Below, one piece after another: positions 1 through 1,053 of a DNA stretch of 64,000 nt. The DNA comes from Escherichia coli O127:H6 str. E2348/69 (lineage in GTDB: Bacteria; Pseudomonadota; Gammaproteobacteria; Enterobacterales; Enterobacteriaceae), in the NCBI RefSeq assembly GCF_000026545.1, contig NC_011601.1. One strand, 5' to 3'. Under the pieces are notes generated by a model, which saw only the letters and a list, made by a program, of their open reading frames with translations, was not told where the DNA came from and made no database searches. The translations under genes and the position numbers were made by a program. Numbering within the stretch: position 1 is the stretch's first letter; each line of letters starts with the position of its first letter.

Positions 1-274
1 CCAGCGCGAGGAGCAGCGGATGAGCCTCACATGCCCTTACAGTGGCGGTAAATCCGGCTTCGGCAATGGCTTGCGGGGACACAGACGGGTTACGTATCAG
101 GCGGTACGCACCTTCAACCTGAGCAGTGGACTGGGATGATTTCACAATAGAAAGACCTGCATGCTGAGCGAGAGAAGAGGCCAGTGACACAAGGCGTCGT
201 GTACGACGCGGATCACCGAGACGGGCATGTCCAAACTGCTCGTTAGCCCATGAATAACAATCAGAAAGTACCAT
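1..274 (-). CDS. IS4-family DDE transposase, N-terminal part (partial, 5' end at 274, runs off the window)
   Basis: Manual translation from ATG (274..272): MVLSDCYSWANEQFGHARLGDPRRTRRLVSLASSLAQHAGLSIVKSSQSTAQVEGAYRLIRNPSVSPQAIAEAGF..., open to position 1. Aligns with the Tn5 Tnp N-terminus (LGDPRRTARLV, EGAYRFIRNPNVSAEAI) as recalled from memory. Confidence 0.7.
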   Translation of the reverse strand, partial: MVLSDCYSWANEQFGHARLGDPRRTRRLVSLASSLAQHAGLSIVKSSQSTAQVEGAYRLIRNPSVSPQAIAEAGFTATVRACEAHPLLLAL

Positions 275-420
275 AACAGACCCGAAGAAAATGAAATATA
301 AGAGAAGATCAACGGGTGAGGAAAAAGTTCAAAAAATCGCTGCCGGGGAGGAAGGAAACTACCGGATGGAAAGAGTCCCCCTAAAGCAGACTGACAGACA
401 TCACAAATCCCCGGGTGGGG

Positions 421-439
421 ATTTGTGTATAAGAGACAG
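421..439. repeat. Terminal inverted repeat of the IS50-like element
   Basis: ATTTGTGTATAAGAGACAG is the reverse complement of CTGTCTCTTATACACAAAT, 17/19 identical to the Tn5 outside end (CTGACTCTTATACACAAGT) and to the mosaic end (CTGTCTCTTATACACATCT). Confidence 0.7.
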
Positions 440-1053
440 CCAATCGCCAGGGTATTACGACCAAAGGTGGTTTTATTCAGCAGCAAGCCAAAGATGATCA
501 AACACGCGACGGTGAGCCAGATTGGCGCAGGCAGACCAAACCAGTTGGCGTAACCAAGGGCAAAGAAGCTTTCATCTTCGATACCGACCGCTTTACCGTC
601 TGAAATGATGTACGCCAGACCTCGAACAATCTGCATCGTTGCCAGTGTCGTGATCAGGGCATTTATTTTGAGTTTGGCGATAACAAAGCCATTGACCAGA
701 CCACAGAGAATGCCCAGCAGCAACCCCGCTGCCACGCCAATCCACAGGCTTTCAGTCAGATTAATAACCACCGCCGTGGTGACACCCGCACAGGCAATTA
801 CGGAGGCGACAGAAAGGTCAAAGTCACCGGAAGCAAGGCAGAACAACATGCCACAAGCCACCATCCCCGACATGGAAATTGCCAGGCCCAACCCTTTCAT
901 ATTAATGAAGGTGGCAAAATTTGGGACAAAAATGGCACAGGCGATAAAAAGCACCGCAAACACCACCAGCATGCCGTACTGATCCCAGATACGCCCGAAG
1001 CTGAATGACGACTTAGGTGCGCCAGAACCCGATGTAGAAACAGAAGACATCAT
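440..1053 (-). pseudogene. araH: araH, arabinose ABC transporter permease, truncated by IS insertion (N-terminal ~204 codons remain)
   Basis: Minus-strand ORF starts MMSSVSTSGSGAPK... and matches AraH up to ...LLNKTTFGRNTLAIG at 440; beyond that the 303-aa track ORF reads into IS sequence with no AraH similarity. Confidence 0.85.

Follow-up and report, generated by a model that had tools for sequence, protein, structure and literature searches.

The 64,000-nt stretch of DNA analysed here (the window) is identical at 64000/64000 positions to E. coli E2348/69 (NZ_CP059840.2, 2018719-2082718, reverse strand). It opens inside an insertion sequence that interrupts araH, with araG and araF beyond. 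In the AraFGH high-affinity arabinose ABC transporter, AraH serves as the permease. The features at this end of the window are listed below; coordinates prefixed L002 refer to the araH locus of E2348/69 extended beyond the window.

1-439, minus strand: right-hand 439 bp of ISEc13, at 100% identity to RefSeq-annotated ISEc13 copies.
1-274, minus strand: 5′ portion, codons 1-91 of 457, of the gene for the ISEc13 transposase (by translation; the RefSeq CDS start is 274).
142-1053, minus strand: predicted chimeric open reading frame of 303 aa (from the ORF list), AraH residues 1-204 followed by 99 IS-encoded residues.
307-310, no strand: GATC (Dam) site, 33-36 nt upstream of the transposase start codon (computed).
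402-427, no strand: sub-terminal perfect 11-bp hairpin, arms 402-412 and 417-427, fold −12.4 kcal/mol, z −5.9 (DNA fold).
421-439, minus strand: outer-end-like 19-bp terminal inverted repeat CTGTCTCTTATACACAAAT, facing araH, 17/19 to the Tn5 outside end (OE) and mosaic end (ME).
440-448, no strand: 9-bp target-site duplication copy CCAATCGCC; the second copy is at L002 4542-4550.
440-1050, minus strand: araH 5′ fragment, codons 1-204 of 328 (RefSeq pseudogene, ‘missing C-terminus’).
1065-2579, minus strand: araG, ATP-binding subunit, annotated intact, upstream of araH (WP_001187819.1, L002 6726-8240).
2649-3638, minus strand: araF, periplasmic binding protein, annotated intact, the first gene of the operon (WP_000548680.1, L002 8310-9299).

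An earlier note, made from the letters of the window alone, had placed the window start inside an IS50/Tn5-like element; what it observed and how it read this both proved correct. This element is ISEc13, a simple insertion sequence in the IS50 subgroup of the IS4 family, whose transposase is 42% identical to that of Tn5. The name was taken from RefSeq/PGAP annotation: the encoded protein is identical to WP_000244358.1, the 457-aa ‘IS4-like element ISEc13 family transposase’. Tools built on ISfinder list ISEc13 as well. The full-length element in E2348/69 measures 1550 bp (L002 4551-6100), of which 1111 bp lie beyond the window start, and a sequence search of the 64-kb window found no further ISEc13 copies or ends elsewhere in it. 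De Palmenaer et al. 2008 (PMC2266710) define the IS4 family by a DDE spacing of D(60-110)D(100-150)E and by the motif Y(2)R(3)E(6)K. In ISEc13 the two spacings are 99 and 129 residues and the Y(2)R(3)E(6)K motif is present; as befits the family, a single-ORF transposase (457 aa) fills the 1550 bp, the terminal inverted repeats are short and the target duplication covers about one helical turn. The IS50 subgroup is described as having a length of 1350-1550 bp, the end consensus CW------Y---CA-A--W- and direct repeats of 8-9 bp (PMC2266710), and ISEc13 falls within it on each count, with 1550 bp, two ends that fit the consensus and repeats of 8 or 9 bp. Under the ISfinder rule, iso-forms share at least 95% DNA identity with the reference or diverge from it by less than 2% in protein sequence (PMC2266710).

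From ATG 274, a minus-strand ORF encodes MVLSDCYSWANEQFGHARLGDPRRTRRLV...EGAYRLIRNPSVSPQAIAEAG and continues past the window start. The earlier note had read it as the N-terminus of a Tn5-type transposase, and the translation, the RefSeq CDS start and the alignment to Tn5 all agree. Positions 1-274 cover the Tn5-type N-terminal DNA-binding domain, with Pfam Tnp_DNA_bind at residues 8-65. Residues 6-453 of the complete 457-aa protein align to residues 9-469 of Tn5 transposase (E 6e-84; PDB 4DM0, 1MUH and others), and identity is 42% over 436 aligned positions. D93, D193 and E323 align to Tn5 D97, D188 and E326, respectively, and Y316, R319, E323 and K330 align to the Tn5 YREK residues Y319, R322, E326 and K333. 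Pfam domains Tnp_DNA_bind (PF14706), DDE_Tnp_1 (PF01609) and Dimer_Tnp_Tn5 (PF02281) were matched, and NCBIfam model NF033590 (IS4 family transposase) scored 514 bits against a cut-off of 160. Homology to Tn5 transposase covers the whole length, N-terminal DNA-binding and C-terminal dimerisation domains included, as is characteristic of the IS50 subgroup. ISEc13 thus shares with IS50/Tn5 (1MUH, 1MUS, 4DM0) the three-domain organisation of its transposase and the conserved DDE and YREK residues. Unlike Tn5, it lacks an in-frame start codon where the Tn5 inhibitor begins: the counterpart of Tn5 M56 is Q52, which is followed by V53 with the codon GTT.

Recomputing the visible terminus returned the values given earlier, namely a 19-bp end at 421-439 that faces araH and matches OE and ME at 17/19 each; on the minus strand CTGTCTCTTATACACAAAT also matches the Tn5 inside end (IE) at 13/19. 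It is the sole ME match at three or fewer mismatches in the 64 kb, where 0.01 would be expected by chance. The left end of ISEc13, which lies outside the window, is CTGTCTCTTGATCAGATCT and is identical to IE (19/19). The earlier statement that the end sequence is not exactly OE, IE or ME holds for the visible right end, of which it was made. The two ISEc13 ends match one another at 13/19 positions and have C1, T2, T9, C13, A14, A16 and T19 in common, in keeping with the subgroup consensus CW------Y---CA-A--W- (PMC2266710). The 19-bp ends of ISEc13 and of IS50/Tn5 all begin CTGTCTCTT. As in Tn5, the left end includes the GATC sites of IE and contains the transposase stop codon, and the right end bears an OE-type TTATACACA core, although it departs from OE at two positions. 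ISEc13 is a relative of IS50 and not IS50 itself, being neither near-identical to it in sequence nor bounded by an exact OE together with an exact IE. The two elements also differ slightly in length: IS50 is about 1.53 kb long, compared with 1550 bp for ISEc13.

A further difference from IS50 is that strong sub-terminal hairpins at both ends of ISEc13 overlap the terminal repeats. At the right end, the hairpin at 402-427 overlaps the inner 7 bases of the repeat. Its counterpart at the left end (L002 4553-4583) has a perfect 13-bp stem (−13.5 kcal/mol, z −5.5) and likewise overlaps the terminal repeat; it repeats bases 3-15 of the inside-end-like terminus in inverted form and includes the transposase stop codon. 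Three GATC sites fall within the first 26 bp of that terminus. These sites are a feature in common with IS50, as is the GATC at 307-310, which by the same analogy may have a regulatory role.

On the minus strand, AraH is encoded from 1050 (the RefSeq start; an alternative ATG is at 1053) down to 440, in 204 codons that end ...NKTTFGRNTLAIG, and the earlier placement of the end of AraH homology at about codon 204, exactly at 440, was confirmed. RefSeq annotation of E2348/69 gives the order otsB, araH 3′ fragment, ISEc13 transposase, araH 5′ fragment, araG, araF. The 3′ fragment is recorded as a pseudogene ‘missing N-terminus’; with both halves around ISEc13 marked in this way, the annotation bears out the claim that araH is disrupted. 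A 9-bp duplication, CCAATCGCC, had been predicted beside the 3′ half of araH and is present there exactly: the second copy directly abuts the other IS end, beside the araH 3′ part. In the uninterrupted araH of strain 7/2, CCAATCGCC is found once, at the insertion position, and in-silico removal of the IS and one repeat yields an intact 328-aa AraH ORF. The duplication carries a 1-bp ambiguity, because the same base, G, precedes the left repeat and ends the IS. The chimeric ORF at 142-1053, which stops inside the IS, is a mechanical consequence of the insertion.

Leftward extension, which the earlier note had called for, was possible in the E2348/69 source genome; it located the second inverted repeat and the continuation of the transposase gene, with cargo absent. 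The halves of araH are separated by a single 1550-bp IS with the duplication directly flanking it, which is therefore a simple IS without cargo; the earlier note had left the choice between a simple IS and a composite transposon undecided. The locus is almost certainly the product of a full-length, apparently functional ISEc13 that inserted at about codon 204 of araH in the E2348/69 lineage, and none of the results speaks against this. The insertion is already known, in that it is annotated in public RefSeq records of this reference EPEC strain, and it is ordinary because those records already place ISEc13 there. In our literature searches ISEc13 appeared only in lists of detected elements, the combination of E2348 and araH gave nothing relevant, and a search on insertion sequences and pseudogenes of E2348/69 gave nothing useful.

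We examined how widely the element and its junction with araH are distributed. The 439-bp end was matched in 1695 of 5426 complete E. coli genomes, from human, animal and water sources, at up to 31 places per genome; on the E2348/69 chromosome 29 places match. Most of the genomes matched by this probe show 95-99% identity (1610 records). The IS/araH junction probe found a full-length match in 3/5426 complete genomes, all of them E2348/69 (EPEC O127:H6) or derivatives, and more than 5000 other genomes matched it over the araH half only. ISEc13 here is the same element as in other RefSeq E. coli genomes, and only its araH insertion site is specific to E2348/69. One lower-identity example was inspected, in CFSAN061761 (L006 2987-3274), and consists of a truncated, stop-containing N-terminal transposase fragment beside IS66 and integrase fragments; being truncated and stop-containing, it is an old relic and not a live ISEc13.

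The araH copy shows 0 mismatches over 1550 bp against the dgoD copy in E2348/69 and against a copy in strain B19374, and recent activity is therefore indicated. The dgoD copy, the second identical ISEc13 in E2348/69 (L001 2890-4439), splits the gene for galactonate dehydratase and is flanked by an 8-bp duplication, TGCATGGG (locus orientation); dgoD is thus another gene, of sugar-acid catabolism, inactivated by ISEc13.

There is a slim chance that the insertion is real and the araH copy is nevertheless an inactive relic, no longer mobile. A consensus scan detected no strong sigma-70 promoter consensus in the element, and many genomes hold only the truncated, stop-containing relative at 95-99% identity, both of which would suit such a relic. 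However, weak promoters are normal for transposase genes, which counts against this reading, and so do the intact 457-aa ORF with all catalytic residues, the two intact ends and the 100% identity over 1550 bp to copies in E2348/69 and in another strain. Judging from its sequence, the araH copy of ISEc13 is probably still active.

The possibility that the junction is an assembly chimera, a repeat-induced misjoin that set an IS end against araH, had been raised in the earlier note. A multicopy IS, at 29 places, is the usual setting for misassembly, but the junction is identical in three complete-genome records, of E2348/69 and its derivatives, and between the araH halves sits one IS, bordered by a matching duplication, whose excision restores the frame exactly. 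We rejected the misjoin, which is highly improbable, because it would yield neither the matching duplication nor the exact restoration of the frame. It is scarcely credible, too, that 1-439 belongs to a composite transposon as one of its arms, with cargo genes further left, outside the window. Although the window shows only 439 bp of the element and Tn5 itself is formed by IS50, the second inverted repeat lies 1550 bp away and is followed by the second 9-bp repeat and the 3′ part of araH, and the transposase gene is the only gene inside the element. The composite transposon was rejected on the ground that the duplication directly flanks a single 1550-bp IS in E2348/69; ISEc13 differs from Tn5 in being found as a solitary IS and not as a composite transposon. 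Finally, an engineered mutant carrying a laboratory mini-Tn5 or EZ-Tn5 insertion, which would fit the 17/19 resemblance of the ISEc13 end to ME, is barely conceivable and is already refuted by the sequence, given a visible end that is not ME, OE or IE, a transposase only 42% identical to that of Tn5, a 1550-bp element without a marker, and a 439-bp end present at 29 places on the chromosome and in 1695/5426 genomes from humans, animals and water. The earlier preference for a natural IS50-group relative over a laboratory mini-Tn5 stands on the same grounds: the element is multicopy and widespread, lacks a marker and has a visible end that is not ME, OE or IE.

For the insertion of ISEc13 into araH, a cut-and-paste DDE transposition can be proposed by analogy with Tn5 and IS10. 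A transposase dimer would bind and synapse the two 19-bp ends and, following the Tn5 analogy, excise the element through hairpin intermediates. The two 3′-OH ends would then be joined to the target strands with a stagger of 9 bp at araH, and gap repair would produce the CCAATCGCC duplication, leaving araH as a pseudogene in the E2348/69 lineage. The chemistry of these steps is that established for Tn5, which ISEc13 presumably shares.

To characterise target choice, 19 distinct ISEc13 insertion sites from several strains were rebuilt from the flanks of each copy. The site L022, a full-length copy, has no target duplication, having probably lost it through recombination between IS copies or an adjacent deletion. 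This left 18 sites (L001, L002, L007-L015, L017, L019, L020, L023, L024, L026 and L028). The duplication is 8 bp long at 15/18 sites and 9 bp at 3/18 (araH, L017 and L023). The earlier expectation of 9 bp is thus correct at araH, while for ISEc13 in general 9 bp is the minority length; Tn5 differs, since ISEc13 usually duplicates 8 bp and not 9. Around the duplicated block, positions −4 and −2 are C and positions +2 and +4 are G at every one of the 18 sites, following the pattern YCYCY-N8/9-RGRGR. Among the 15 8-bp sites, the neighbouring arm positions hold Y to the left of the block and mostly R to its right (YCYCY-N8-RGRGR). At the three 9-bp sites the arms, read from the flanks, are the same and keep their register to the joints, and are spaced one base wider. 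In the 64-kb window the full consensus is rare, occurring once with N8 and twice with N9. Most of the sites are intergenic and resemble intrinsic terminators, being GC-rich stem-loops; many fold at −10 to −24 kcal/mol, and several are followed by T runs. The araH target has the invariant C/G arm bases but no stem-loop fold (z +0.67).

Several of the copies deserve individual mention. L019 and L028 represent one terminator-like hairpin; ISEc13 occupies it in one orientation in one strain and in the reverse orientation in another, suggesting a hot spot for insertion. The agp-yccJ intergenic hairpin holds the element in the same orientation in two genomes, with an 8-bp duplication in FDAARGOS_144 (L007 190-1739) and a 9-bp one in GCA_045344535.1 (L017); the difference reflects either independent insertions or a 1-bp assembly difference. 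The L023 copy is 1549 bp long, through a 1-bp deletion or a sequencing error.

The symmetric C/G arms of ISEc13 targets differ from the weak consensus of Tn5. IS10/Tn10, a cut-and-paste element of the IS4 family, also has a symmetric target consensus, and its duplication is 9 bp long. It belongs to another subgroup than ISEc13 and has other ends; its consensus lies inside the duplicated block, whereas the conserved bases of ISEc13 are in arms outside the block. The family assignment of IS10 is that of the family table in PMC2266710. The constant register of the arms to the joints at 18/18 sites suggests arm-based positioning, and a two-fold-symmetric transposase complex that reads the arms would explain their symmetry. 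Tentatively, and with the odds a little below even, ISEc13 may pick its targets by an arm rule that is not described in the literature searched, in which a symmetric transposase complex sets both strand transfers from the arms without a fixed stagger; araH would then be a rare coding-sequence event with arms one base further apart. If unreported, this pattern would be a modest addition to knowledge of target selection by Tn5-like transposases, of specialist interest.

The consequences for the host can be predicted from the gene structure. AraFGH should be non-functional as a high-affinity arabinose transporter in E2348/69, because the insertion interrupts the 328-aa permease after residue 204. 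As araH is the last gene of araFGH, araF and araG are unaffected. The transposase gene and araH point in the same direction, and arabinose-induced transcription, together with translation of the truncated araH, would therefore enter the IS across the transposase start, as can be seen from the chimeric ORF at 142-1053. The insertion thus records an araH pseudogene, and a probable loss of AraFGH uptake, in a widely used EPEC prototype strain, where arabinose-inducible expression from pBAD could be affected when little inducer is present. It also illustrates the expansion of ISEc13 in the E2348/69 lineage, in which another copy has inactivated dgoD. Beyond such bookkeeping, the araH insertion matters little.

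The remainder of the window holds the following further pseudogenes, gene fragments and RNA genes.

25337-25749: yedD pseudogene, frameshift (RefSeq).
28978-29118: integrase fragment between fliE and yedL (RefSeq).
42767-44460: dgcQ pseudogene, frameshift (RefSeq).
60466-61360: invasin-domain fragment about 300 bp from a tRNA-Asn gene (RefSeq).
9329-9627, minus strand: cluster of three tRNAs, annotated Gly, Cys and Leu (Rfam gathering score).
41671-41757, minus strand: DsrA sRNA (Rfam gathering score).
50092-50182, plus strand: RseX sRNA (Rfam gathering score).
59008-59094, minus strand: tRNA, annotated Ser (Rfam gathering score).
60086-60158, plus strand: tRNA, annotated Asn (Rfam gathering score).

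The sRNAs and tRNAs matched by Rfam are ordinary E. coli features.
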